This document shows positions 1 through 24,106 of a stretch of DNA of 28,256 nucleotides, in pieces. The notes under the pieces were generated by a model. That model did not search any database, was not told the DNA's origin, and saw only the letters and a program-made list of their open reading frames with translations. The stretch is from a virus. Numbering within the stretch: the first letter of the stretch is position 1; each line of letters begins with the position of its first letter. The position numbers were made by a program, and so were the translations under genes. The stretch covers positions 216,297 to 244,552 of IMG/VR virus record IMGVR_UViG_3300037245_003526; one strand, written 5' to 3'.

Positions 1-236
1 AGTACTACTGCAACAGGAGATGAAGATACAATTCTGGTATCTAATAATACTACAATAACACTACCTTTAGCATCTAGTAGTGATAAAAGATTAACAATAA
101 TTAATACAGATGGAAATACAACTACTATTAATAGAGCTGGATCGGATACAATTGATGGTGCAACATCAGTTGTAATGAATACACAATATAGTACAATAGT
201 TTTATTACCTGAAGGAACTACGTGGCATGAAGTATA
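1..236 (+). CDS. 5'-truncated CDS; Thr/Asn/Ser-rich C-terminus of a structural (tail-fibre-like) protein
   Basis: Frame 1 is open from base 1 to TAA at 234-236 (...ITLPLASSSDKRLTIINTDGNTTTINRAGSDTIDGATSVVMNTQYSTIVLLPEGTTWHEV*). The T/N/S-rich composition typical of fibre or receptor-binding tips, and the position just before the lysis genes, suggest a structural role. No motif-level identification. Confidence 0.45.
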
Positions 237-252
237 ACAGGAGGACAATGTA

Positions 253-543
253 ATGGCAGATTATAGATTTGAATCAGTGCAGTCAGATATAGACGAACTA
301 GAGGGAAAATATAGAGAAACTATTTCGTCATGGACTGGAGTAACTGATCCTACATACGGTGATTGTTATAGAGCTACTGTAGCACATTCTTTAGATCCAG
401 TTAATAGTGCCCATAACGTTACATTTTGGGATACAGGTACTAGCGAACAAATTATTCCATTAGCATGTAGAATTGTTGATGCTAGTTCATTTTATGTTTT
501 TATGCCAGTTAATACAGTAACAGTACAAGTTGTTGCCAATTAG
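253..543 (+). CDS. hypothetical protein (96 aa)
   Basis: AGGAGG sits 8 nt upstream of the ATG. It directly follows the fibre-like gene. A fibre chaperone is possible but unsupported. Confidence 0.6.
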   Translation: MADYRFESVQSDIDELEGKYRETISSWTGVTDPTYGDCYRATVAHSLDPVNSAHNVTFWDTGTSEQIIPLACRIVDASSFYVFMPVNTVTVQVVAN

Positions 544-569
544 TCGAAAACTTTGACGGAGACTCAAAT

Positions 570-869
570 ATGTTAAATCAATCTAGTAAACTAGTACAGT
601 CAATTTTGGAAGGAATAAATTCCGATTCTACAAAAGATACATTATCTATGTTGAGTAATCTTATTGAAGTTTTAGAAACGAAAGAAGATCCAGAATTAGA
701 AGAAGTTAAACTTGTAGAAGACGTTCATATCTTTATTGAAAAATTAAAACTTCTAGAAGCAAGACTTAGAAATTATATTAAGGAATCAAATAAAACCCTT
801 CCAGGAAATAAACTTGCCTCTCTCTATGAAAAACTTTCTTATAATAATGGTAGTATTTACCACGATTAA
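570..869 (+). CDS. hypothetical coiled-coil protein (99 aa)
   Basis: ORF with a weak GGAG RBS, same orientation as its neighbours. Confidence 0.5.
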   Translation: MLNQSSKLVQSILEGINSDSTKDTLSMLSNLIEVLETKEDPELEEVKLVEDVHIFIEKLKLLEARLRNYIKESNKTLPGNKLASLYEKLSYNNGSIYHD

Positions 870-901
870 TTAGACCTTTTTTTGATGTTAGAGGAGGAAC
901 T

Positions 902-1387
902 ATGTTACGATATATGAATAGATCTATTTTGAGCGCTCCAAATTTTAAGTATAGAGAATTTATAAAATCAGACACAGCAACAAGATATAATATTAAAAAT
1001 GAACCAACTGATGAGCAATGGCAAAATATAGAAATAGTAGCATCACAAATTATTCAACCAGTTCGAAATGAATTTGGTGGAATAAGAATTACATCAGGAT
1101 TTAGAAGTCCTGAACTTTGTGAAAAGATAGGAAGTTCTAAAAAATCCAATCACACAAAAGGGCAAGCAGTTGATTTTGAACCTATAGATAACGTTCCTAT
1201 GATTAAAATATTGGAGTGGATTTCAGAAAATTGTGAGTTTAGAGAACTTATAGCTGAATTTTTTCCAGACGGATGGATTCACGTAGCATATAGACTTGGT
1301 GGTAATATTGGGAAGATAAAACTAAAAGATCCAAACCATAATTATGAAGAAAAAAATATAGAATATATCCGTTCAATATACCAGTAG
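902..1387 (+). CDS. peptidase M15 family (L-alanyl-D-glutamate peptidase / VanY-like), probable endolysin
   Basis: Strong RBS GAGGAGG. Zn-ligand pattern SGFRSPE...SNHTKGQAVDFEP...GWIHVAY (H-x-x-G-x-A-x-D plus a distal His), as in T5-type endolysins of the M15 family. Confidence 0.7.
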   Translation: MLRYMNRSILSAPNFKYREFIKSDTATRYNIKNEPTDEQWQNIEIVASQIIQPVRNEFGGIRITSGFRSPELCEKIGSSKKSNHTKGQAVDFEPIDNVPMIKILEWISENCEFRELIAEFFPDGWIHVAYRLGGNIGKIKLKDPNHNYEEKNIEYIRSIYQ

Positions 1388-1403
1388 TTTACAGGAGATA
1401 CTA

Positions 1404-1859
1404 ATGGCAGATCAGAATCAGCAGGCTATGTCGAGGGATGATCTATTCCTATTAATGCAGAGTTATGAAAATACAGTTCAACTTAATACTACACTTCTAA
1501 ATCAACATCAAAAATTATTAGATGATAGTAAATCTCTTTTAGAAAAACATTCAGATATTATTATTAACCTAAATTCTTTAGCTGATAAACAACAAAAAAT
1601 TTCTGAAAAAAATACAACTATAATTAATAAAATAACAACACTTTCAGAACACCATGAGAGAAACATAGAAAATATTGACATAAAGATCGACGATCACAGA
1701 GTAGAAACCCTAAAGGATCATAATCAGCTCAAAACAAAAATTATAGTTATTGGTGCATTAATTGGTACTGTAGGAATTACACTATTAACTCTAATAGGCC
1801 AAATGTGGAGTAAGTATGAAATACTGGAGGCCATAGCAAAATCGTTAGGAGTTAACTAA
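1404..1859 (+). CDS. coiled-coil protein with one C-terminal transmembrane helix; possible holin/spanin-like lysis accessory
   Basis: AGGAGA RBS. The N-terminal ~110 aa are coiled-coil-like, followed by a hydrophobic stretch IIVIGALIGTVGITLLTLIGQMW. It sits directly after the endolysin. Functional call is inference. Confidence 0.55.
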   Translation: MADQNQQAMSRDDLFLLMQSYENTVQLNTTLLNQHQKLLDDSKSLLEKHSDIIINLNSLADKQQKISEKNTTIINKITTLSEHHERNIENIDIKIDDHRVETLKDHNQLKTKIIVIGALIGTVGITLLTLIGQMWSKYEILEAIAKSLGVN

Positions 1860-2701
1860 TGAATGATACTATATTTATTTTAGATGACGAAGACCAATTC
1901 TTAGAAATAATGAAATCATTTCTAATAGGAAGTGATATACCATGTAATGTTAGTACGTTTACAAAACCAGAAGACTTATTATCACAAACAAATATTAAAG
2001 ATGTAGATTTATTTATTATAGATATTAATCTAAAAACTGCACTTGATGGAAGAGAAGTATGTTCTGAAATACTGAAAATAAATAAGTATGCTGTATTTCT
2101 TTTTAACTCTGGTTACGATTATAATTATAATTCATTTATAAATCTTGATTGTACATTTGATTATATTCAAAAACCTGTTACTCACCCTATAATTATTAAT
2201 CGAACAAAAACTCTTCTTCATCTTTCTAAAGAACTTAAAAAAATAAATAAAACAAAAAAGAAAATTGAATTGAGTTTACGAGATATTTTTGACTATTCTG
2301 ATATCTATTTATTAGTTCTAAATTCAGAAATGGAAATACGATTATGTAGTTATAGATTATCAGTAGATTTAGGATTTGAATCTTCAGATGAAATTATAGG
2401 AAAAAATTGGACTAAATTTCTTCCTATTGAAATGGCTCCTCTAAAAGATCTTTTTAGTCCAGAAAGAAAAAAAATATTTAATGAATTTACTAATGATATA
2501 CAAACTAAAGATGGTAAAAGAATTCCTACTAAATGGTTTAATACAAGAATTAAAAATGGTGAAATGTGGACATTTAGTATTGGTATCCCATTAACAAAAG
2601 AAATAACTAAAGAAGATAGTATTGAAACAATGAGATCATATTGGGAAGATATTATAAAAAAAGATAGAACAACAATTAACGTCTTTAAAGACTTAATGTA
2701 A
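1859..2701 (+). CDS. CheY-like receiver domain fused to a PAS-like domain
   Basis: The ATG overlaps the upstream TAA. Receiver signature: acidic pocket ILDDED, phospho-acceptor DLFIIDINL..DGRE, S/T in FLFNSG, and conserved YIQKP (K-P). The C-terminal half has PAS-like DLGFESSDEIIGKNW...KDGKRIPTKWFNTRIKNGEMWTFSIG. Confidence 0.65.
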   Translation: MNDTIFILDDEDQFLEIMKSFLIGSDIPCNVSTFTKPEDLLSQTNIKDVDLFIIDINLKTALDGREVCSEILKINKYAVFLFNSGYDYNYNSFINLDCTFDYIQKPVTHPIIINRTKTLLHLSKELKKINKTKKKIELSLRDIFDYSDIYLLVLNSEMEIRLCSYRLSVDLGFESSDEIIGKNWTKFLPIEMAPLKDLFSPERKKIFNEFTNDIQTKDGKRIPTKWFNTRIKNGEMWTFSIGIPLTKEITKEDSIETMRSYWEDIIKKDRTTINVFKDLM

Positions 2702-2706
2702 TAGTA

Positions 2707-2747
2707 ATATGGATTATTTAGATTTAATTAAATGATCCATATTTTTT
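2707..2747 (+). terminator. rho-independent terminator hairpin
   Basis: ATATGGAT-(20 nt loop)-ATCCATAT followed by TTTTTT, 6 nt after the receiver-PAS stop. Confidence 0.5.
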
Positions 2748-2833
2748 CCGTCGAAAATAACCTCGTATTTACACCTTATATTTGGAACAAATAACCAATA
2801 GGATTTAATCAATAAAAGTGAAAAGGAGAATCT

Positions 2834-3709
2834 ATGAAACAAATCGAAGATGTGAAAATTTTAGTAGTTGGCGATATTATGTTAGATGAATATATAGTTG
2901 GAGATGTTAATAGAATTTCACCAGAAGCTCCAGTACCAATAGTTACTGTTAAAGATACATATTATAAACTAGGTGGTTGTGGAAACGTAATATCTAATCT
3001 TTCAAATATTGGAGCTAGAGTATCTTGTGTAACAGCAATAGGTCAAGATCAACCATCGAATATTATTCTGAAAGAACTTAGAAGTTTAAATGTTGATACA
3101 GAGTTTTTAATTTCTAGATCTGATATAACAACTACAATTAAAACAAGAATTATTTCTGATGAACGACAAATACAAATACTTCGATATGACACAGAGAATA
3201 TAAAAGATGTAGATACGTCTATTCTTGAATTAACTAATGGATATGATGTAATTGTAATTTCAGATTATGCTAAAGGTATGATAACAAAACCATTAATGGA
3301 TAAACTTAAAAGTTTTGGTAATAATATCATAGTTGATCCAAAACCAAAAAATTCACATTTATATAATGATATATTTTTAATGACTCCAAACCAAAAAGAA
3401 CATGATGAAATGATGAACGGTTATTTTCCAAGAGTTGAATATGTATTAAAAACTATGGGAAAAAATGGAATGGAGTTAATAGAGCAAAAACATGGAAGAC
3501 AAGGTGGAATTAAAATTAAATCAAAACCTGTCGATGTTTATAATGTAAGCGGAGCAGGTGATACAGTAGTAGCAATTATATCTCTTTGTTTAGCATTAGG
3601 TAACGACTTATATACCTCTGCTAAAATAGCAAATGAATGTGCCGGTTATGTAGTAACCCAAACAGGAACCTCAATGGTGCCAAGAGAATTTTTTAAGGAG
3701 CTATTATGA
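2834..3709 (+). CDS. D-glycero-beta-D-manno-heptose-7-phosphate kinase-like (HldE/RfaE domain I, pfkB/ribokinase fold)
   Basis: AAAGGAGA RBS. The N-terminus ILVVGDIMLDEYIVGDVNRISPEAPVPIVTV is nearly diagnostic for RfaE/HldE domain I. Also present: DYAKG, IVDPKPKN, and the C-terminal pfkB anion-hole motif NVSGAGDTVVAI...AGYVVTQTGT. At 291 aa it is kinase-only; there is no adenylyltransferase domain. Confidence 0.75.
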   Translation: MKQIEDVKILVVGDIMLDEYIVGDVNRISPEAPVPIVTVKDTYYKLGGCGNVISNLSNIGARVSCVTAIGQDQPSNIILKELRSLNVDTEFLISRSDITTTIKTRIISDERQIQILRYDTENIKDVDTSILELTNGYDVIVISDYAKGMITKPLMDKLKSFGNNIIVDPKPKNSHLYNDIFLMTPNQKEHDEMMNGYFPRVEYVLKTMGKNGMELIEQKHGRQGGIKIKSKPVDVYNVSGAGDTVVAIISLCLALGNDLYTSAKIANECAGYVVTQTGTSMVPREFFKELL

Positions 3710-4443
3710 AGAAAATTATATTAGTTTTATTTATATTATTAGTAAGTATATGCTCCTTAAGTTATGCAGATATTACTGTACAATGGGACGCAAATACAGA
3801 ACCTGACTTAGCAGGTTATAAAGTTTATTATGATGAAATATCACAGTGTCCAGATGGAGAAGATACATGTACAAATCCTAATTCATTATATACTGGTACT
3901 GGAGCAGTAGAGGGATCATCTCCTATTATAATAAATGAAACTCTATCAAATCCAGAATTTACTTTAACCGGACTTGATTCTTCAATAGATTGGTTTATAT
4001 CAGTTACAGCTTTTGATAATGAAACACCTGCTTTAGAAAGTGATCTTTCAAATCAGGTGGTAGCTTTAAAAGATATTATTACACCTCCTGATATTATTCT
4101 TGAAGAAACAACTTTGTTATGGGATGCTAATACAGAACCTGACTTAGCAGGTTATAAAGTTTATTATGATACAAATACAGGAACTCCATATAGTGGTACT
4201 GGAGCTATAGTATGGGGTGTACCAGCTGATTCTCCAATTATCATTCCATTAACTGCTCCTGGATTTGATCCTACTAATCCAGAGATTACACTAAAACTTG
4301 ATGGATGTATAACATGGTTTTTTGTAGTTACAGCTTATGACACTGAAAATCTTGAAAGTGATTATTCAAACGAAGTTTCAGATCCAGATGGTTGTCCACC
4401 TGAACCACCAACTGGAGTGATAGTAGTAATAACTCCAATATAG
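3706..4443 (+). CDS. secreted protein with two fibronectin-III-like repeats
   Basis: ATGA overlap with the upstream stop, and an AAGGAG RBS. N-terminal signal peptide MKKIILVLFILLVSICSLSYA. Two ~110-aa repeats share WDANTEPDLAGYKVYYD...SPIII...W..VTA.D.EN.ESD.SN.V. A 48-nt DNA tract is near-identical at 3787-3834 and 4123-4170. Confidence 0.65.
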   Translation: MKKIILVLFILLVSICSLSYADITVQWDANTEPDLAGYKVYYDEISQCPDGEDTCTNPNSLYTGTGAVEGSSPIIINETLSNPEFTLTGLDSSIDWFISVTAFDNETPALESDLSNQVVALKDIITPPDIILEETTLLWDANTEPDLAGYKVYYDTNTGTPYSGTGAIVWGVPADSPIIIPLTAPGFDPTNPEITLKLDGCITWFFVVTAYDTENLESDYSNEVSDPDGCPPEPPTGVIVVITPI

Positions 4444-4457
4444 TGAAAGGAAAAATA

Positions 4458-4988
4458 ATGAAACCAACGAATGAAATGAAAGAATATTTTGAACTAAGAA
4501 CCAACAGTCATATTAATATTGTGCAACTTAGTATGTTTTCTTTAATAAATAAAAAAGTTCATGAGAAGTATAATCTTAATAAAATTAATTTAATAAGTAG
4601 AGCTGATATACATGATAAATCCAAATTTGGTGATGTGGAATATACTCCATATGTTTGGTTAACAGAATTTTATCGAGCTAAAAATAATAACGAGCCTTTT
4701 AGTTATCCAGATGGAATGGAAGATTTAATATTTGATGCTTGGATACATCACTCTGAAACTAATCCTCATCATCCAGAATATTATCATAATTGTATTAGAA
4801 TGTCAGAAGAAGATATGGTTGAAATGGTTTGTGATTGGAATTCTATGTCACAGGAATATAATCAATCTCTTAAGAAATGGGTAGATGAAAATATTGATAG
4901 AAAATGGAAATTTAATAAAAAAAATAAAAAGTTTATTTATGAGATAGTAGAAATATTAGAACAAAAACTAAATACAGATATACTTTAA
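4458..4988 (+). CDS. possible HD-domain phosphohydrolase
   Basis: The ORF track starts at GTG 4443. An ATG at 4458 with an upstream AAAGGA fits better. His/Asp pattern: H(INIV)...RADIHDKSKFGD...DAWIHHSETNPHH...VCDWN. Weak motif-level call. Confidence 0.5.
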   Translation: MKPTNEMKEYFELRTNSHINIVQLSMFSLINKKVHEKYNLNKINLISRADIHDKSKFGDVEYTPYVWLTEFYRAKNNNEPFSYPDGMEDLIFDAWIHHSETNPHHPEYYHNCIRMSEEDMVEMVCDWNSMSQEYNQSLKKWVDENIDRKWKFNKKNKKFIYEIVEILEQKLNTDIL

Positions 4989-5001
4989 AAGAGGTAGCTA
5001 T

Positions 5002-5772
5002 ATGTTACAACTAGACACTAACAAAAAAAGAATACTTGAATATAAAATAGATATTCAAGGAATTGATTATAAAGAACTTGAAGGTGTTTTAAAATTTACA
5101 ATAGAAAATGTACATTATGGATTTCCATTAGAAATATTGTCTGATAATATTTTAGCAGAAGTACCTCCATTAGAAACAATTGTAAAGAATCTAAAAGATA
5201 AAGATATCATAAAATGTAAACTTGAAGTTTATGGAGAAGGTTTTTATTTGAATCCATGGTCAGGTGAATTTCAACTTGCAAAACCAGTTAAAGTAGAAGC
5301 TGCTCTTAAAGGTGAAGATGAAATTGAAGGTAAAGCTGTTACTGCTACATTAGTTGAAAAAACTAACAGACCTAAAGAAGATATAAAACCTGAAAATATT
5401 GACGAATCTGAAAAGAAGAAAGTTCTAACTAAATTATTCAAGAAAATAGAAGCAGCTCCTAAGAAAAAATTAATATCAGAGAAAGTACAATCAAAACTAA
5501 CAGAAATGAATAATCTTGTTGATATGTTTACAAGTTCATCTCTAAGAAATATAAAGAATATACCAAAACCAGTCAAACCTAAAAAAATTATGGTAGAAAA
5601 TGATCCATTGGCTCTAATGGCATCATTTGGAATGAAAAATAAAAATATTCAAGAAAGATTATTAGAATCTATTGGAGATAATGAACCAGATGAAGTTTGT
5701 AGACAACTTAGAAAAATGCTAGGAAATGAAAATCAAGATTCAATTTCATTATATTCTAAACTTCGAGGATAA
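5002..5772 (+). CDS. hypothetical Lys/Glu-rich protein (256 aa)
   Basis: AAGAGG RBS, long ORF, no recognisable motifs. Confidence 0.6.
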   Translation: MLQLDTNKKRILEYKIDIQGIDYKELEGVLKFTIENVHYGFPLEILSDNILAEVPPLETIVKNLKDKDIIKCKLEVYGEGFYLNPWSGEFQLAKPVKVEAALKGEDEIEGKAVTATLVEKTNRPKEDIKPENIDESEKKKVLTKLFKKIEAAPKKKLISEKVQSKLTEMNNLVDMFTSSSLRNIKNIPKPVKPKKIMVENDPLALMASFGMKNKNIQERLLESIGDNEPDEVCRQLRKMLGNENQDSISLYSKLRG

Positions 5773-5775
5773 CAA

Positions 5776-6123
5776 ATGATACTAGATTCATATTTACAAT
5801 ACATTCAAAAAGAAGAGACGTTGCAAGAATTTATAACAGTCCCTATGATTGCTATATTAGTAAAAGTCTATACCAGACATTTAAGTAAAGCTGCCAAGGC
5901 ATGTATCGGACATACAAGAGTCTCAAAAACAATATGTATATTAGAATATAGATTAAAAGCAGCACAAAACATTCAAACCGATTTAAAGAAAATTATTGGA
6001 AAATGTAGAAGTTCTAAAAATCCACAAAAATGTGTTTTAAAAGTTAATAATCGAATAAATTATTTTAAACGAAAAGAACAAAAAATAAGACAACAACTAT
6101 CAAAAGCATATCAGAAGGTTTAA
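5776..6123 (+). CDS. hypothetical basic protein, member of an 'SYL(D/Q)YIQ' N-terminal motif family
   Basis: GAGGA RBS. N-terminus MILDSYLQYIQKEE is shared with the ORFs at 6125 and 12685. Confidence 0.55.
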   Translation: MILDSYLQYIQKEETLQEFITVPMIAILVKVYTRHLSKAAKACIGHTRVSKTICILEYRLKAAQNIQTDLKKIIGKCRSSKNPQKCVLKVNNRINYFKRKEQKIRQQLSKAYQKV

Positions 6124-6124
6124 T

Positions 6125-6544
6125 ATGAATAAAATTACAGAATCCTATTTAGATTATATTCAGTCTGAAAAATATACAATCAAATCTGCTATAAAAGCTA
6201 CTGGAAAGTCTGTAGCCACTATGGCAAAAGGAACAAGTAAAGCTGCTTTAAGTGCAGTGACATTACCTTATAAAGTAGCTAAAGGTGTTGGTCGTGCCGC
6301 AGAAAAATCAGGTGAAATTTATTATAAAAGAGAAAAAAGAATAAGAGATAGAAAAATTGCAAAAAAAAGAAGAGCAGAAGCAAGAAAAAAGTTTGTAGGG
6401 AAGCTTAAATCAGCAAAAGCAAAAGTATCAAAACATGCACCAAAGGCAGTTGTCGCTGGTTTAGCAGGTATTGCAGCACATCAATTATATAAGAAATATA
6501 AACAATATAAAAAAGGTAAAGATAGCGAAAAAAATGAAGAATAA
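6125..6544 (+). CDS. basic Lys/Ala-rich protein (histone-H1-like tail), 'SYLDYIQ' family
   Basis: N-terminus ESYLDYIQSEKY, then a K/A/R-rich body (KRRAEARKKFVGKLKSAKAKVSKHAPKAVVAGLAG...). Confidence 0.6.
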   Translation: MNKITESYLDYIQSEKYTIKSAIKATGKSVATMAKGTSKAALSAVTLPYKVAKGVGRAAEKSGEIYYKREKRIRDRKIAKKRRAEARKKFVGKLKSAKAKVSKHAPKAVVAGLAGIAAHQLYKKYKQYKKGKDSEKNEE

Positions 6545-7112
6545 TATAATTAAAAATTATTTAAGTTTAATTCAAGAAGGTTACCTATTTTCGGATAAAA
6601 CAATAAGTATAGATCTTAATAAATTTGAAAGTGGAGAATCTAATACATTACTCGTAGTAGGTCTTATAGGTTCTGGTAAAACAACGTTAGGAAACTATCT
6701 CGCAAAAGAATATAAAGCACAATCCCTTCATACAGATAAATGTATTGCTTGGACTATAGCAGAACATCCTCCAAATAAAAAATTAATATCTGAATATTAT
6801 AAATGTATTCTAAAAATGATTAATTCTAATAAAAAAAGTGTTGTTGAAGGAACTGGTTTAATAGATCTAATGTTAGATAAAAAAGAATTGTTTGATTATC
6901 CAATGATTATAATTGGAAAGTCTGCCTTAGCAAGTTCAATTCAGTCAATGTTAAGAAATAGAAAAAATAAAGAAGAAAAGTTTTGGAGATTAATTTCCAT
7001 TCATACAAGATTGAATTTTAAAACTTTTTATAAAAAAATATTAGAAGTAAGAAAAGAAAGATTAAAAATACCTGGAGCAGTCATAGAAGAATATAAGGTA
7101 CCTAAATTATGA
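6534..7112 (+). CDS. P-loop nucleotide/polynucleotide kinase-like protein
   Basis: The track ORF starts at 6471 inside the previous gene. The ATG at 6534 overlaps the upstream stop by 11 nt and gives MKNNIIKNY... Walker A LLVVGLIGSGKTTLGNYLAKEY in a ~190-aa protein, consistent with a dNMP-kinase / PNK-kinase-like fold. Confidence 0.6.
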   Translation: MKNNIIKNYLSLIQEGYLFSDKTISIDLNKFESGESNTLLVVGLIGSGKTTLGNYLAKEYKAQSLHTDKCIAWTIAEHPPNKKLISEYYKCILKMINSNKKSVVEGTGLIDLMLDKKELFDYPMIIIGKSALASSIQSMLRNRKNKEEKFWRLISIHTRLNFKTFYKKILEVRKERLKIPGAVIEEYKVPKL

Positions 7113-7136
7113 ACTATCTAATGAACAGGAGAACTA

Positions 7137-7406
7137 ATGGCTAAACGCAAATCTTGTAAGCTTTGCACAGTTAAGAGAAAACAATGGGAAGAGGAAAACT
7201 TTTTTGGAGTTAATTGTAGGAAACATTTCGTACCTTTAATGGTAGTAAAAACACATAAGAAACGATTAAGTCCAGAGGAGAAAATTCAGGTTAAATTATT
7301 TATTGAAAAATATCATAATGGTATGTTTCCAGATAAATCGTTCAATGATTCAGAAGAACATTGGCACTTACATTTAACAAAAAAAGACAAGGGAATTAAA
7401 ATATAA
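7137..7406 (+). CDS. small Cys-containing basic protein (89 aa), possible zinc-binding
   Basis: CAGGAGA RBS. CKLCTVKRKQWEEENFFGVNCRKHF. Confidence 0.5.
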   Translation: MAKRKSCKLCTVKRKQWEEENFFGVNCRKHFVPLMVVKTHKKRLSPEEKIQVKLFIEKYHNGMFPDKSFNDSEEHWHLHLTKKDKGIKI

Positions 7407-7422
7407 TTCCCAAGCTTTTTTA
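7391..7422. terminator. bidirectional terminator hairpin
   Basis: GGGAATT-aaaatat-AATTCCC perfect 7-bp stem spanning the 7137..7406 stop, with an A-run upstream and a T-run downstream. It lies between convergent genes. Confidence 0.5.
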
Positions 7423-7425
7423 TTC

Positions 7426-7686
7426 TTACTCATATGATTCAGAACAAATACTACAATTCTTATCCAGGTCTAATTTAATTCCTCCGCAGCACATCCAAGA
7501 ATCTGGTTCATCTGGATTTTTATTATTAAGTCCTGTTAAGTCTATCTTTTTATGTCTCTTTATATAATCTAAAATAACATTTTCTATCTGTAGTGATTTT
7601 ATAATTGTACTAGATCTTATAGAATCTATTATTTCTCTACTCATTGTCATTGCATCTAATCTTGTAATCTCAGCTGTTATGGTCAT
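7426..7686 (-). CDS. hypothetical protein (86 aa)
   Basis: The track begins at TTG 7689. The ATG at 7686 has a strong RBS (AATGGAGGAtattgATG). Confidence 0.5.
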   Translation of the reverse strand: MTITAEITRLDAMTMSREIIDSIRSSTIIKSLQIENVILDYIKRHKKIDLTGLNNKNPDEPDSWMCCGGIKLDLDKNCSICSESYE

Positions 7687-7773
7687 CAATATCCTCCATT
7701 AAAAAAATTAATAAAATACTTTATCTATTTATTAATATATATACTTAAGAACATATATAAAAGGAGAATTATT

Positions 7774-7923
7774 ATGGATCTATATATAGAGCATATAAAG
7801 AATATTTTAAAAGAACCAAAAAAAATAAATCTATCAGAAGTAACCATCACTAATAAAGATTTATTTATAATAAATGAAATCGCTAGAAAAGATGAAAAAC
7901 TTTTTCAGATTGGAGATGAATAA
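7774..7923 (+). CDS. small ORF (49 aa) below the track size cut-off
   Basis: AAAAGGAGAattattATG at 7774. Translation MDLYIEHIKNILKEPKKINLSEVTITNKDLFIINEIARKDEKLFQIGDE*. Its TAA overlaps the ATG of the next gene (TAATG coupling). Confidence 0.4.
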   Translation: MDLYIEHIKNILKEPKKINLSEVTITNKDLFIINEIARKDEKLFQIGDE

Positions 7924-8348
7924 TGGATGATAATGACTATTTAAACCTATTAAAAGATCAACAAAAAAAAGACGATGAATCATTGGTTATGTTAAATGAA
8001 GAGAAACAAGATACCGAAACATTCGCTCCGTGGATAGGTGTTGATCTTGATGGAACATTAGCATATTATGAAAAAGGATATGCTCAGAAAAAAATGATTG
8101 GTGATCCAATTCCTGAAATGTTTGAAAGAGTAAAGAAGTGGATTGCTGATGGTAAAATAGTAAAAATATTTACTGCAAGAGTATACAAAAAAGAAGATGT
8201 TGGATTAATAAAAGATTGGTTGAAAAAAGTTGGTCTCCCTGATCTTGATGTAACCAATATTAAAGATCCTGGTATGTATGTCCTTTATGACGATAGAGCA
8301 GTTCAAGTACAACAAAATACCGGAAAGCTTCTAGGTAAACCTATTTAA
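7923..8348 (+). CDS. HAD-superfamily phosphatase (polynucleotide 3'-phosphatase / deoxyribonucleotidase-like)
   Basis: HAD motif I GVDLDGTLAY, motif II KIFTAR, and a motif IV-like LYDDRAVQV resembling the T4 Pnk phosphatase DDRTQVV. Confidence 0.6.
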   Translation: MDDNDYLNLLKDQQKKDDESLVMLNEEKQDTETFAPWIGVDLDGTLAYYEKGYAQKKMIGDPIPEMFERVKKWIADGKIVKIFTARVYKKEDVGLIKDWLKKVGLPDLDVTNIKDPGMYVLYDDRAVQVQQNTGKLLGKPI

Positions 8349-9307: not shown

Positions 9308-10246
9308 ATGGGATGTAAATGTTTAGAAAAAATACAATCATTATTTTCTGGTTGGAATCCATATCCATATGTACCTGGACAAGATGATAATATTATTCTT
9401 GACCCAATACCTGAACCTACTCCTGACCCAATACCTGAACCTATTATTGAACCTGTAAAGAAAGCAGTATTGGTTGGTATAAATATTTATCCAGCTCATA
9501 TGGATGCTAATTTAAGTGGATGTGTAAATGATGTTACGAATATGAGAAATTTATTGGTTTATACGTATGGATTTGATCCTGATAACATTAGAGTTCTAAA
9601 TGATGATCGTGCTACTAAAGCTAAAATTTTTGAAAGGTTAACATGGTTAATGAATTCTAATGAAGGTGATGAATTAGTATTTCATTATAGTGGTCATGGT
9701 AGTCAAGTAAGAGATAGAAATGGCGATGAACTAGATGATGGTTTAGATGAAATATTAATACCATACGACCATGATTGGGATGCTCCATTATTAGATGATC
9801 AAATAGCTGAAATATTTAAAACACAACCTGAAGGAACTAATCTCACAATGATTGCTGATTGCTGTCACAGTGGTTCTGTTTCTAGAGATATATCTAAAAA
9901 GAAGAAAAAAATTAGATTCCTTACACCACCATTTGATATCAGAAATAGAAGTCTTGATAAAGACTTATTATTAAGAAAAATTGGAGTTAAACCAAAAGGG
10001 ACTCAAAGACATATTCTTGCATCAGGTTGTAAAGATCATCAAACCTCAGCAGATGCATATATAGGATCAACATGGCAAGGTGCTTTTACATACGCTTTAA
10101 CTTCAGCTTTAAAAACAAATTCTAATCAATCTTGGACTTCAGCAATTGAAAAATTAAGTAGTATATTAGAAGTAAAAGGTTTTGATCAAACACCTCAACT
10201 AAGCGGAGATGATCAAAATAAATTAGTTTTTGGCGGAGCTGTTTAA
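9308..10246 (+). CDS. caspase-family (peptidase C14, metacaspase-like) protease
   Basis: AAAAGGAGG RBS. Catalytic dyad contexts FHYSGHGSQ (His) and IADCCHSGS (Cys, the D-x-C-H-S-G metacaspase signature). Typical fold start VLVGINIY and C-terminal QLSGDDQNKLVFGG. N-terminal MGCKC followed by a Pro-rich linker DPIPEPTPDPIPEPIIEP encoded by an 18-nt direct repeat. Confidence 0.8.
   Translation: MGCKCLEKIQSLFSGWNPYPYVPGQDDNIILDPIPEPTPDPIPEPIIEPVKKAVLVGINIYPAHMDANLSGCVNDVTNMRNLLVYTYGFDPDNIRVLNDDRATKAKIFERLTWLMNSNEGDELVFHYSGHGSQVRDRNGDELDDGLDEILIPYDHDWDAPLLDDQIAEIFKTQPEGTNLTMIADCCHSGSVSRDISKKKKKIRFLTPPFDIRNRSLDKDLLLRKIGVKPKGTQRHILASGCKDHQTSADAYIGSTWQGAFTYALTSALKTNSNQSWTSAIEKLSSILEVKGFDQTPQLSGDDQNKLVFGGAV
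9401..9442 (+). repeat. 18-nt direct repeat (x2) encoding a Pro-rich linker in the caspase gene
   Basis: gacccaatacctgaacct at 9401-9418 and 9425-9442 (DPIPEP x2). Confidence 0.7.
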
Positions 10247-13444: not shown

Positions 13445-14677
13445 ATGGGTAAAATTAAATATCCTGGTTTATGTGAGTTCGTTCAGGAAAAACTCAAACA
13501 GAAAAAAGATTCCACAGAGATATTTAATGAGGCATGTAGAACATTCAATTACAAAGATAGAATTAGTAGCTTCAGAAGATATGTAAATAATATAAAATAT
13601 AGACATAAAGATGATAGTCCAAATCAACCCTCAAATGATCAAACCATAAAAGAAAACTTACCAAAAGATGACGTATCAGAATTTCTTGATATTGTTTCGA
13701 AACAAAAAAATATAAGCATTATTGACATATGTAATGATCTTAATTGTTCACCACAAAGAATAGATAATTTAGTTTCCTATCATAGATCAAAAGGTTATGA
13801 TATCACCATTCATGAAGATATGGTTATGTTCTTTACAGACCTAGTATCATCAGTCGAACAAGTCCCTCAGATATCAGAAACCGAAATAACATTTGGTGTA
13901 GCATCCGACCTACACTTTGGATCCAAAGCAGCACAAATAACCGCTCTAAATGAGTTCTGTAATATATGTTCAAAAAGAGGAGTTAAACACATATTCAGTC
14001 CAGGTGATATTGTAGCAGGTTATAATGTATACCCTGGACAGCAATTCGATTTATATGCTTTATCAGCAGAAGAGCAAGAAGATTCAGTAATTAAAAATCT
14101 TCCAACCGGTGACTTTCAATGGTATATGTTAGGTGGTAATCATGATTATGCCTTTATTAAAAAGGGTGGTGGTCATAATCCTGTATTAGCAATAGCATCA
14201 AAAAGAGAAGATGTACATTATGTAGGTTTCGATGATGCTGATATACCTATACTTAATGGAGTAGAGCTTAAGCTGTGGCACCCTTCTGGAGGTGTGCCAT
14301 ATTCAGTATCTTATAGATTACAAAAAGGTGTAGAGCAAATATCATATAGCGAATTAAGAAGAATAATAAGCGGAGAAAAAATGGCACCAACAATTAGATT
14401 TGTACTGTCTGGTCATTTACATATTCAAGTACAAGCTATGATTGGATCAATATTCGGAATGCAATGTGGAGCATTTGAAGGTCAAACAAATTATCTAAAA
14501 CGTAAAGGTTTAGTACCTAATATTGGTGGATATATAGTTAATGCAGAATTAGGAAAAAATGGTCTTATTAAAAATTTCGATGCTAAATTTTATATGTTTG
14601 AAGATATAGAAGATGATTGGAGAAACTATAGTCATAGTATACCAAAACAAAAAATAGTTAAACCTATATTTGGATGA
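13445..14677 (+). CDS. calcineurin-like metallophosphoesterase with an N-terminal extension (410 aa)
   Basis: TGGAGG RBS. MPP motifs ASDLHFG (D-x-H), SPGDIVAG (GD), LGGNHDY (GNHD), LWHPSGG, and LSGHLHIQ (GH-x-H). Confidence 0.7.
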   Translation: MGKIKYPGLCEFVQEKLKQKKDSTEIFNEACRTFNYKDRISSFRRYVNNIKYRHKDDSPNQPSNDQTIKENLPKDDVSEFLDIVSKQKNISIIDICNDLNCSPQRIDNLVSYHRSKGYDITIHEDMVMFFTDLVSSVEQVPQISETEITFGVASDLHFGSKAAQITALNEFCNICSKRGVKHIFSPGDIVAGYNVYPGQQFDLYALSAEEQEDSVIKNLPTGDFQWYMLGGNHDYAFIKKGGGHNPVLAIASKREDVHYVGFDDADIPILNGVELKLWHPSGGVPYSVSYRLQKGVEQISYSELRRIISGEKMAPTIRFVLSGHLHIQVQAMIGSIFGMQCGAFEGQTNYLKRKGLVPNIGGYIVNAELGKNGLIKNFDAKFYMFEDIEDDWRNYSHSIPKQKIVKPIFG

Positions 14678-15441
14678 AAACTGAAAAATATTATATTTAT
14701 GCATATTTAGATCCAACAAAAAAAGGTAATTTTAAATATACGATTGAAGGAAAAATATTTATATTTGAATTTGAACCTTTTTATATTGGAAGAGGAACAA
14801 AAAATAGACTATTGGATCATTTAAAGTTACATCCTTTAGATAAAAATTATTTTAAAAAGAATAAAATTAAAAAAATAAAAAAATTAAATATAGAACCAAT
14901 AATAGTCAAGGTAAAGTTTTTACCTGATAAAATAAAAGCTAACTTATTAGAAAAAGAATTTATTAGTGTTATTGGTAGAAGAGATTTGAATCTAGGACCC
15001 TTAACAAATCTTACTGATGGGGGAGATGGAACTTATGGTTATAAACCTTCTGAAGAAGCAAAAAGAAACTGGAAAAAATCTATAAAAAAATTTTATGATG
15101 TAAAAGAAAATAGAGATAGAATGGGTTACTATAGTACAATTGAAGGAATGATTGAAAAATATGGAATAGTTGAGGGAGAAAAAAAGTATAAAGAAAGAAT
15201 AAGAAAGATGAAGAAGTCGATTAATAAAACATATAGTGATCCAAAAATAAGAAAAAAATGCTCAAATAAAGGTTCTAAAAATGGAATGTTTGGTATTACC
15301 CCACCTCATGCAAAAAAAGTTTTAGTTATGGAAGTTTTTTATAACTCCATTGCAGAAGCTTCTAAACATACTAAAGTTCCGTATACCACATTATCTCAAA
15401 GGTTAAATAGTAAAAATTTTTCAGAATATAAATATTTATAA
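14674..15441 (+). CDS. GIY-YIG homing endonuclease
   Basis: Overlaps the preceding stop (ATGA) and has a weak RBS, as is typical of free-standing HEGs. N-terminus YIYAYLDP...PFYIGRGTKNRLLDH carries GIY and YIG motifs with conserved R/H. The C-terminus has a NUMOD-like HTH (GMFG..PHAKKVL..EVFYNSIAEASKHTKVPYTTLSQRLNS). Confidence 0.8.
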   Translation: MKTEKYYIYAYLDPTKKGNFKYTIEGKIFIFEFEPFYIGRGTKNRLLDHLKLHPLDKNYFKKNKIKKIKKLNIEPIIVKVKFLPDKIKANLLEKEFISVIGRRDLNLGPLTNLTDGGDGTYGYKPSEEAKRNWKKSIKKFYDVKENRDRMGYYSTIEGMIEKYGIVEGEKKYKERIRKMKKSINKTYSDPKIRKKCSNKGSKNGMFGITPPHAKKVLVMEVFYNSIAEASKHTKVPYTTLSQRLNSKNFSEYKYL

Positions 15442-22484: not shown

Positions 22485-23123
22485 CTAATTTATTTTGCCT
22501 CTATCAGTTGGAATCTCAAGTTTGTTAAGCACATTGTCAAAATTTCCATGTACTGATGAACCACTCTCTAAAATTTCTCCTCTTTCCTTTTTACATTTTT
22601 CGCAGGGGCAACTTTTAGGTACTATATTCTTTAATAAATCTCCAACCATTTCTACAATTTTTGAATCTTCTATAGGTAGTGGAGGATTATCATCTATTAT
22701 TTTTTTAATAACTAAACGATTATCCTCATTCCAGGGAGATACATATTGTTCAAATGGAACATTGAATGCCCATTGTGTATCTTCTATATAGGTTTCCCCG
22801 CCCGGCGTAATGTCTTTCATACCAATCTTTATAGCATTCTTTCCATCCGATTCAGTGTATACCATAGCTAATGTATGTGTAGTTTCCGATATAAATAATA
22901 CCAAATCCGTTTTAACTTTGTAAGATATTATAGATACAAAATCACCTGCCTCTTTCCTCATAGCAGGATCATGGACTGGAAGAACGTTTACATCAACTTC
23001 CTCGTTTTCCATTTTTTTGACCAATATAAACAAAGAAGGTCTGTATTCCTTATTTATGTTATTAATAGCTTCACTAAAAATTTCATCAGCAATCTCCTTA
23101 AACTTCATTTTAAATTCTTCCAT
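22485..23123 (-). CDS. paralogue A of a duplicated 212-aa protein family with a C-terminal Cys cluster
   Basis: AGGGGAAttaaaATG. About 60% identical to 23468..24106. The C-terminal CPCEKCKKERGEILESGSSVHGNFDNVLNKLEIP is near-identical to its paralogue. Confidence 0.65.
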   Translation of the reverse strand: MEEFKMKFKEIADEIFSEAINNINKEYRPSLFILVKKMENEEVDVNVLPVHDPAMRKEAGDFVSIISYKVKTDLVLFISETTHTLAMVYTESDGKNAIKIGMKDITPGGETYIEDTQWAFNVPFEQYVSPWNEDNRLVIKKIIDDNPPLPIEDSKIVEMVGDLLKNIVPKSCPCEKCKKERGEILESGSSVHGNFDNVLNKLEIPTDRGKIN

Positions 23124-23467: not shown

Positions 23468-24106
23468 TTAATTTATTTTGTTTTTATCATTAGGAATCTC
23501 AAGTTTGTTAAGCACATTGTCAAAATTTCCATGTACTGATGCTCCACTTTCTAAAATTTCTCCTCTTTCCCTTCTACATTTTTCGCATTGACAATGGTTA
23601 GATGCTAAATTCTTTAATACATCTCCAACTATTTCCATAATTTCTGAATCTCCTATGGGATCTGGAGGAGGATTATCCTTTATCAACTGTTCGATAAATA
23701 AACGATTTTCCTCATTCCAGGGTGATACATATTGTTCAAATGGAGAATTGAATTCCCAGGTTGAATCTCCTACATATATTCCTTCTGGTTTATTGTATTT
23801 AGTACCAAACTTTAGAGCACTCTTTCCGTCCGATTCGGTGTACGACATATACAATGTATTTTCAGTTTCCCATATGAATAATATCAAATCCTTTTTATTT
23901 TTGTAAGATATTATAGATACAAAATTACCTGCCTCTTTTCTTTTAGCAGGATCATATACAGGAATAATGTCTACATCACTTTCCCCGTTTTTCAAATCTT
24001 TGACCAATATGAAAAGAGAAGGTCTTTCTTTCTCGTTTATATTATTACAAGCTTCACTAAAAATCTCATCAGCAATCTTAATAAACTTCATATCAAATTT
24101 TTCCAT
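23468..24106 (-). CDS. paralogue B of the duplicated 212-aa family
   Basis: GGGGGaaaaATG. C-terminal CQCEKCRRERGEILESGASVHGNFDNVLNKLEIP. Confidence 0.65.
   Translation of the reverse strand: MEKFDMKFIKIADEIFSEACNNINEKERPSLFILVKDLKNGESDVDIIPVYDPAKRKEAGNFVSIISYKNKKDLILFIWETENTLYMSYTESDGKSALKFGTKYNKPEGIYVGDSTWEFNSPFEQYVSPWNEENRLFIEQLIKDNPPPDPIGDSEIMEIVGDVLKNLASNHCQCEKCRRERGEILESGASVHGNFDNVLNKLEIPNDKNKIN

Follow-up and report, generated by a model that had tools for sequence, protein, structure and literature searches.

A phage gene for a REC-PAS response regulator, paired with a predicted membrane protein next to an endolysin gene, may belong to a module that controls lysis

The 28,256-nucleotide stretch of viral DNA analyzed here (IMG/VR record IMGVR_UViG_3300037245_003526, positions 216,297 to 244,552; hereafter the window) raises the question of what a phage does with a response-regulator receiver that is joined to a PAS-like fold. 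The gene concerned, the REC-PAS gene at 1859-2701, was singled out in an earlier note based on the DNA letters, which proposed that the phage intercepts a host phosphorelay, or senses a small ligand, to time the functions encoded downstream. Our analysis indicates that the receiver is real, that the PAS half and the tail behind it fit the role of an output module, and that the gene is paired with a gene for a predicted membrane protein, g151, which separates it from an endolysin gene. Control of lysis through g151 is the explanation we favor, and below we weigh it against four others. The encoded protein was divided as follows.

1859..2701, + strand: REC-helix-PAS-tail gene, an ATG-to-stop open reading frame (ORF) of 280 amino acids plus stop
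1859..2182, + strand: receiver (REC), residues 1-108, from receiver alignments, model strand ends and family conservation
1883-1888, 2021-2023 and 2108-2110: REC key residues D9/D10, D55 and S84, respectively
2162-2164 and 2171-2176: REC key residues Y102 (aromatic switch position) and K105-P106, respectively
2183..2296, + strand: long α5/linker helix from REC to PAS, residues 109-146, a helix over these residues in the model
2297..2593, + strand: divergent PAS-fold core, residues 147-245, from model strands, PAS structure matches and invariant columns
2594..2698, + strand: C-terminal tail and helix, residues 246-280 (…IETMRSYWEDIIKKDRTTINVFK), from a model helix at 255-279 and invariant columns

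The receiver is genuine and complete and, with the whole active-site quintet present, looks competent for phosphorylation. In a hidden Markov model (HMM) search, Pfam PF00072 (Response_reg) scored 41.6 bits over residues 5-113 (gathering cut-off 30.2, E 1.6e-10), a match that spans profile positions 1-107 of 111. A phmmer search of the 280-residue protein against all PDB chains matched the receivers of PhoP, VicR/CovR, RstA and BfmR; in the alignments with the PhoP, VicR and MicA/RR02 receivers, the DD(E) motif is matched by D9-D10, the phospho-acceptor Asp by D55, the conserved Thr/Ser by S84 and the K-P pair by K105-P106. With a profile built from the ten closest family members, the match to PhoP (1mvo) rose to E 2e-16, and the best PDB matches of the receiver were receivers of the OmpR/PhoB type. 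Pairwise BLAST with E. coli CheY was weak (E 1.3), but D55 nonetheless lay on CheY D57. An AlphaFold2 model of the protein, built on 16 family sequences (mean predicted local distance difference test score, pLDDT, 82), shows a (βα)5 fold in the receiver half, with five β-strands alternating with five helices and ten-residue block means of pLDDT 82-95 across residues 1-120. The key residues D9/D10, D55, S84 and K105-P106 stand at the ends of strands β1 (3-8), β3 (51-55), β4 (79-84) and β5 (99-104), respectively. In a Foldseek search of the PDB with the N-terminal half, the PhoP receiver gave a target template modelling (TM) score of 0.80 (root-mean-square deviation 2.8 Å), and the range for the PhoP, BfmR, RstA and 3crn receivers was 0.80-0.86. 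From alignment and model together, the REC-PAS protein is a bona fide response regulator, and the complete receiver signature claimed in the earlier note stood up in the Response_reg search, in the alignment of the quintet and in the modelled fold; the positions on which that claim was staked (D55, S84 and K105) align with the PhoP, VicR and MicA/RR02 receivers.

The PAS half is borderline by sequence and clear by fold. PAS_9 scored 26.4 against a cut-off of 27 and TIGR00229 22.4 against 22.9, both narrowly below threshold, and so the PAS part of that claim found no formal support in the HMM search, whereas structure prediction bore it out. The model has five PAS β-strands (150-154, 159-163, 208-215, 221-233 and 235-244) with helices between them, and Foldseek matched the C-terminal half to the PAS domains of 3bwl, 3mfx, EcDOS and FixL with probability 1.0 and target TM scores of 0.66-0.77. 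Family-invariant residues in the PAS core are Y146/S147, E209, W226, F227, G242, P244 and L245. Among the 16 closest relatives (alignment A1) R259 and D269 in the tail are invariant; over 68 members (alignment A3) E209, W226 and the receiver residue D101 are invariant, and F227, G242, P244 and R259 nearly so. Inspection by eye for cofactor motifs found GKNWTKFL at the place of the LOV motif GRNCRFL, and no Fα histidine was seen. The helix that joins the two domains (109-146) is likely to serve for dimerization and signal transmission.

No DNA-binding domain was found in the 280-residue protein with Pfam or NCBIfam, the winged-helix Trans_reg_C domain included, and the NCBIfam regulator models matched only the receiver part, far under their cut-offs. 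Because the winged helix is missing, the JGI label "DNA-binding response OmpR family regulator" misdescribes the C-terminal half. Domain scans of the window ORFs of at least 90 amino acids agreed with the earlier note that the window holds neither a DNA-binding output for this receiver nor a cognate kinase; HisKA and HATPase_c domains were absent from these ORFs and from the called genes of related loci.

Which half of the protein carries its function is suggested by its relatives. An exhaustive HMMER search of 1.84 billion cluster representatives gave 720 proteins with E ≤ 1e-3, of which 135 reached E ≤ 1e-10. We count at least 135 clusters in the family, which is known from metagenomes and phage contigs alone (IMG/VR contigs of 96-269 kb and two NCBI assemblies among the sources); the cluster that contains the identical protein includes a contig of 244.5 kb. 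When the query was split into receiver (1-120) and PAS plus tail (125-280), the C-terminal module was the common part, and it is preceded in different members by REC, pseudo-REC, REC-PAS, two or three PAS domains, PAS-GAF-PAS or GAF; one member (P0016) is a complete ORF of 165 amino acids consisting of the PAS+tail module alone. Residues invariant across the family sit mostly in this module. The full DD/D/S/K quintet is kept in 50 of 82 full-length representatives, including the window protein and its whole clade, and the D55 position in 75; about 32 have a degenerate receiver. As the C-terminal module is constant behind swappable sensory domains, it reads as an output domain, and the pattern of sequence conservation fits PAS+tail as the output module and the receiver as one of several possible inputs. 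This is contrary to the reading of the PAS half as the sensor in the earlier note.

Searches of GenBank phages and of cellular genomes brought up no further members. Among 50,697 GenBank phage records, blastn of window positions 1-8000 and tblastn of the full protein gave no DNA or protein match for the REC-PAS gene, tblastn of the PAS+tail half gave nothing useful, and the stand-alone family member found just a weak generic PAS in a 735-kb uncultured phage. In 185,579 cellular species genomes, two motif scans of limited sensitivity found no family relative: one used protein motifs and the other the DNA pattern WFN-x10-FSIG[IL]P, which recovers 13 of the 18 known loci, and they gave 14 and 11 chance matches (alignments A3 and A1 were too diverse for pattern building). 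Other receiver or PAS proteins from viral genomes and metagenomes are known from automatic annotations only, and none is close (≤23% identity).

Directly in front of the REC-PAS gene lies a second gene of the module.

1404..1859, + strand: g151, 151 amino acids, with a homologue directly upstream of the family gene at all distinct loci that have upstream sequence

The family gene is directly preceded by a g151 homologue at 14 of 14 distinct loci with upstream sequence, and a fifteenth locus, represented by gene calls only, has an ORF of 165 amino acids in its place. The pairing holds whether the family protein is a GAF, PAS×3, REC-PAS-PAS or stand-alone variant. The two window genes overlap at TAATG (1857-1861), where the stop codon of g151 runs into the start codon of the REC-PAS gene. 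We consider it very probable that g151 and the REC-PAS protein work together. The g151 proteins share the conserved N-terminal motif LSRDDLFLLMQSYENTVQLNTTLL (consensus LS(R/K)DDLFLLMQSYENxVQLNTTLL, with D13, Y21 and N23 invariant), followed by a variable heptad-like stretch and, toward the C-terminus, a single segment of strong hydrophobicity that is preceded by Lys/Arg. The transmembrane segment of the window protein comprises residues 113-131 and is followed by a tail of 20 amino acids; the tails measure 5-25 residues across homologues. AlphaFold2 predicts one continuous helix from 11 to 147 (pLDDT 87). Because g151 has no signal peptide and more than 100 residues precede the transmembrane segment, it should be tail-anchored with its rod in the cytoplasm, as far as the model and predicted topology go. 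No Pfam or NCBIfam family matched, and the PDB matches were coiled-coil noise. Two identities were considered for g151 and rejected. It is not a recognizable homologue of the pinholin gp63 of phage N4 (BLAST E 2.2, hhalign probability 5.5%), topology alone being in common, nor a relative of XhlA/"hemolysin", for which a weak PHROG match was obtained in 3 of 15 members, with no Pfam support. In the degenerate-receiver clade, an extra ORF of about 107 amino acids without a transmembrane segment lies between g151 and the family gene (L007 3426-3752; L014 5638-5958).

The gene on the other side of g151 gives the pair its context.

902..1387, + strand: endolysin, Peptidase_M15_3 (Pfam E 1.8e-13; PHROG endolysin E 1.9e-31)

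g151 begins 17 nucleotides past the endolysin stop codon. The endolysin of the window is soluble, with neither a signal or signal-arrest-release (SAR) sequence nor any other export signal. Synteny counts come from 12-15 loci drawn from few clades; within these, an endolysin gene lies directly upstream of g151 in 8 of the 12 loci with enough flank, and the order endolysin-g151-family gene is kept down to about 31% identity. Peptidase_M15_3 was found at seven loci (the window, L004, L005, L006, L011, L012 and the P0015 contig), and at L018, from a different phage lineage with Phage_capsid_2 instead of Gp23, an unrelated Amidase_3 endolysin occupies the same slot. An adjacent endolysin accompanies the canonical receiver at 7 of 7 loci, versus 0 of 4 for the degenerate one, an association that may reflect only one or two evolutionary events. 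Apart from g151, most endolysin-bearing T4-like loci encode no clear transmembrane protein within ±3.5 kb on the strand of the family gene (+). The link to lysis genes is therefore stronger than the earlier note had claimed from proximity, being conserved to about 31% identity and with a non-orthologous endolysin. The placement of the lysis functions downstream of the REC-PAS gene was mistaken: the endolysin lies upstream.

Taken together, these features suggest a mechanism in which the REC-PAS protein, gated by phosphorylation, would act from the cytoplasm on g151 as a holin-like membrane protein for lysis. A host histidine kinase or acetyl phosphate would set the phosphorylation state of D55. 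As the clade of the window keeps all phosphorylation residues, Y102 included, phosphorylation of its receivers by one of these donors is likely, to judge from the residues. Receivers of the OmpR/PhoB type dimerize via the α4-β5-α5 face once phosphorylated, and a change in D55 would alter the dimer or the conformation via helix α5; since α5 runs straight into the 38-residue helix that bears PAS+tail, the phosphorylation state should rearrange the module. PAS+tail would bind the conserved cytoplasmic N-terminal region of g151. If g151, as a holin or the regulator of one, opens the way to the cell wall for the soluble M15 endolysin, this binding could hold back or promote membrane assembly of g151 and so set the time at which the endolysin gains access to the wall, with lysis advanced or delayed according to host physiology. 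Relatives with GAF or PAS inputs would exert the same control in response to small molecules, while stand-alone or pseudo-receiver versions would exert it constitutively or through protein levels. We regard lysis as the function of the g151/REC-PAS pair with confidence that is evenly balanced, and the chain of steps as a whole falls a little short of that balance. Still more tentatively, it is possible that the family represents a modular, phage-specific lysis switch, in which a constant PAS+helix effector clamps or releases a tail-anchored holin-type protein and swappable inputs couple the lysis clock post-translationally to host phosphorylation or metabolites.

Several observations weigh against lysis control by phosphorylation. 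Phosphorylation cannot be essential to the core function of the family, given that about 32 of the 82 full-length representatives have lost receiver residues and others have GAF or PAS inputs. A cognate kinase is missing from the window ORFs and called genes that were scanned. g151 has no detectable homology to any known holin, N4 gp63 included, and its contact with PAS+tail is, like the lysis role and the phosphodonor, a step that we infer. The four exceptions among the 12 loci (L007 and L013-L015), all with degenerate receivers, have no recognizable endolysin near the module. Moreover, L018 has a classical holin-like ORF with two transmembrane segments ahead of its amidase gene, and for this reason g151 may be either a holin or a holin regulator.

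The lack of a recognizable endolysin nearby at those four loci is also an argument for a module that has nothing to do with lysis, serving instead in superinfection exclusion, anti-defense or envelope remodeling and traveling near an endolysin in one clade. T4 Imm and Sp are small membrane proteins, which counts for such a role, as do the accessory genes of the region (encoding a PfkB-family kinase, a secreted repeat protein and a DUF5662 protein). We nevertheless hold this to be unlikely, given an endolysin immediately upstream in 8 of 12 loci, the shared strand and tight spacing of module and endolysin, and the non-orthologous endolysin of L018 in another lineage, which is hard to explain by hitch-hiking. 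Quite unlikely, in our judgment, is the proposal closest to the earlier note, in which the PAS domain senses a small ligand, the receiver intercepts the host phosphorelay, and the protein integrates both to time downstream genes with no dedicated partner. Both folds are real, ligand binding is common among PAS domains, conserved residues occur on both faces of the β-sheet, and no recognizable output domain is present; against this, PAS+tail is the constant part of the family while the N-terminal inputs are swapped and a stand-alone form exists, no heme-ligand His or LOV Cys motif is visible (GKNWTKFL versus GRNCRFL), a DNA- or RNA-binding domain for timing genes is lacking, and the adjacency of the downstream PfkB gene is not conserved and is interrupted by a terminator-like hairpin.

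Two further explanations turn on the chemistry of the receiver. It could act as a phosphate sink or decoy that drains phosphoryl groups from a host kinase (for example, one for stress or phosphate starvation), with g151 as a membrane tether. The window clade keeps the canonical quintet, its receiver is nearest the OmpR/PhoB type, which pairs with membrane kinases, and a membrane-anchored partner would place it at the membrane. However, many members lack phospho-acceptor chemistry or have GAF or PAS inputs and yet keep g151 and PAS+tail; a receiver alone would do for a sink, but the strongest conservation is in PAS+tail; and the endolysin adjacency is left unexplained, all of which makes a sink decidedly improbable. 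Alternatively, g151 could be a minimal DHp- or HPt-like phosphotransfer partner acting through H106, which lies just before the transmembrane segment and is conserved in at least 90% of paired sequences, in a helical coiled coil translationally coupled to the receiver gene. We rejected g151 as a phosphodonor of this kind, and the idea is barely credible: an H-box is lacking, neither HisKA nor Hpt matched, no ATPase domain was found in the window ORFs of at least 90 amino acids, and the His is equally conserved where the receiver is degenerate or missing (L007, L013, L014 and L018).

Comparison with known systems shows what would be new in regulation of g151 by a signaling protein. To our knowledge, adjustment of lysis timing to host condition is understood mechanistically for few phages (T4 RI/RIII, the λ S107 antiholin, N4), and every known lysis-timing regulator is a dedicated small protein without a recognizable sensory domain. 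In T4 lysis inhibition, the antiholins RI (periplasmic) and RIII (cytoplasmic) are dedicated soluble proteins that bind the holin T and reset lysis timing on a signal (compare PMC11413866). The likeness of T4 lysis inhibition to g151/REC-PAS is a functional analogy only, as neither sequence nor domains are alike: g151 is predicted to lie almost wholly in the cytoplasm, in contrast to the large periplasmic domain of holin T, and the T4 signal is superinfection while here it would be phosphorylation or a cytoplasmic ligand. In Staphylococcus, the LytSR two-component system controls the holin-like CidAB/LrgAB proteins transcriptionally, via the LytTR regulator LytR and with its own kinase. It resembles the window system in coupling two-component signaling to holin/antiholin-like membrane proteins; unlike it, the window system would act after translation, is encoded by a phage and lacks a kinase gene in its vicinity.

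The closest parallel in build is the pinholin gp63 of N4, shown experimentally to be C-terminally anchored (N-in/C-out) with a long helical cytoplasmic domain that takes regulatory input (PMC12642591). It is encoded next to the endolysin, and the lysis regulator gp62 is a protein with two transmembrane segments (bioRxiv 2025.11.12.688109, PMC12642591). g151, by its predicted topology, is like gp63 in build and position, but the two are not homologous and the N4 regulator is not a signaling-domain protein; the "Receiver domain" of the N4 paper is the name of a gp63 segment and not a CheY-type receiver (PMC12642591). Large phages are also known to encode a receiver-fold domain in cREC, the divergent receiver of jumbo-phage NAD/cyclic-nucleotide conflict systems (Iyer et al. 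2021, PMC7824862). Identity with cREC (PF20274) was rejected: there was no cREC_REC match, the window protein has a classical Response_reg domain, and its neighbors are a membrane protein and an endolysin, not NAD/ADP-ribose (ADPr) enzymes.

Regulators consisting of REC and PAS without further output themselves form an established class that abounds in archaea and whose mechanism is unexplained (PMC5847659, Galperin et al. 2018 census), and, with neither enzymatic nor DNA-binding output, they are expected to act by dimerization or protein binding (PMC5847659). The window protein shares with this class a receiver followed by PAS and no other output domain (PMC5847659), and differs from its cellular members in that its family is found in phages and metagenomes only, its divergent PAS falls short of the Pfam cut-off, it has an extra conserved C-terminal helix, and it has an obligate partner gene for a membrane protein, which is undescribed for cellular ones. 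The receivers of OmpR/PhoB regulators (B. subtilis PhoP 1mvo, YycF/WalR/VicR, ArlR and AdeR) are the best matches in sequence and structure over residues 1-125; the window receiver is like them in having all phosphorylation residues, including the aromatic switch Y102, and unlike them in lacking the winged-helix domain behind it. What is new is therefore not the REC-PAS class but the output module, partner gene and context of this response regulator. In the literature we consulted, coverage of which was incomplete, no signaling-domain protein locked to a membrane protein of a lysis cassette is described.

Uncultivated marine phages of the T4-like and jumbo kinds carry textbook input domains (REC, GAF and PAS) on a conserved effector whose gene stays together with that of a membrane protein in the lysis cassette. 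If the modular switch outlined above exists, two-component chemistry would for the first time be seen to act directly on the timing of phage lysis. A role in lysis would offer a testable route from host nutrient, stress or energy signaling to burst timing in the ocean, assign a function to the orphan REC-PAS class of response regulators, and provide synthetic biology with a compact, modular, signal-gated lysis switch. Should the lysis role fail, a well-defined and previously unannotated two-gene phage module would still stand, and an automatic annotation would still have been corrected.

Upstream of the endolysin lies a further conserved gene.

570..869, + strand: g99, a soluble acidic protein of 99 amino acids, with BLAST/HMM matches in L004-L007 and L011-L015 and no Pfam match

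Every T4-like/jumbo locus keeps g99 upstream of the module, and L018 lacks it; its conserved motifs are LIExLExKNDPDP and GNKLxxLY, and it may be a third component of the module. Upstream in L006 (1-9043) and L012 (3787-4800) there is a cluster with UDP-glucose dehydrogenase, MaoC dehydratase, ThiF, radical SAM and acetyltransferase genes, and a papain-like Peptidase_C1 protein of 337 amino acids is encoded between g99 and the endolysin.

On the downstream side, two features bear on the claim that the REC-PAS protein times the genes that follow it.

2706..2749, + strand: terminator-like element, a 15-bp perfect hairpin followed by a U-run, from RNA folding, just past the REC-PAS stop codon
2834..3709, + strand: PfkB-family kinase, RfaE-domain-I-like (252.6 bits against an equivalog cut-off of 345)

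The hairpin, which stands between the REC-PAS and PfkB genes, folds with -15.7 kcal/mol (z = -3.46, 1 of 200 shuffles as good); its stem is A+T-rich, and a consensus terminator scan missed it. The PfkB kinase is closest to RfaE domain I (D-glycero-β-D-manno-heptose-7-phosphate kinase) and may be an envelope or sugar-nucleotide auxiliary gene. It lies next to the REC-PAS gene in the window phage only, is not adjacent in L004, L006 and L011, and is found 6 kb downstream in L005. With this adjacency not conserved and a terminator-like hairpin in between, the suggested timing of a downstream heptose kinase and secreted protein was not upheld. The secreted protein (3706-4443, + strand; 245 amino acids) has a signal peptide and two internal repeats starting WDANTEPDLAGYKVYYD (residues 27 and 139); it matched no Pfam family and gave only a weak PHROG minor-tail match. 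Its stop codon is overlapped by the gene for a DUF5662 protein (4443-4988, + strand; E 1.8e-30). The T4 late promoter TATAAATA is not enriched in the window (9 matches versus 10 expected), with none upstream of the cassette, and a σ70-like promoter scan stayed at background level.

The source is probably an uncultivated marine T4-like or jumbo phage. The G+C content of the window is about 30%, and no tRNA was found in it. One relative of the REC-PAS gene is on a contig of 168 kb, with a T4 Gp23-type capsid gene 8 kb away, and another comes from the assembly of a benthic marine foraminifer. The nearest cultured relatives of the endolysin are in Pelagibacter podophages (45-49% identity). This similarity, the G+C content and the foraminifer assembly are weak hints at the host. 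Other window genes fit a large lytic phage, encoding a helicase, a Metallophos nuclease, a GIY-YIG homing endonuclease and a caspase-like peptidase. The last is specified by an ORF of 312 amino acids (9308-10246, + strand) with a Peptidase_C14 caspase domain (E 2e-32, 113 bits); a metacaspase-like protease is unusual for a lytic phage and could bear on host cell-death pathways. At 13445-15441 (+ strand), a Metallophos nuclease-like ORF (410 amino acids) is followed by an overlapping ORF for the GIY-YIG/I-TevI-type homing endonuclease (255 amino acids). Two paralogues of 212 amino acids, 68% identical and without a Pfam or PHROG family, are encoded on the - strand at 22485-23123 and 23468-24106, with an ORF of 92 amino acids between them. 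Finally, genes lie on the + strand before about 15.4-15.7 kb and on the - strand after it, a switch that coincides with the peak of the cumulative GC skew and may be a point of divergence or convergence of transcription or replication.

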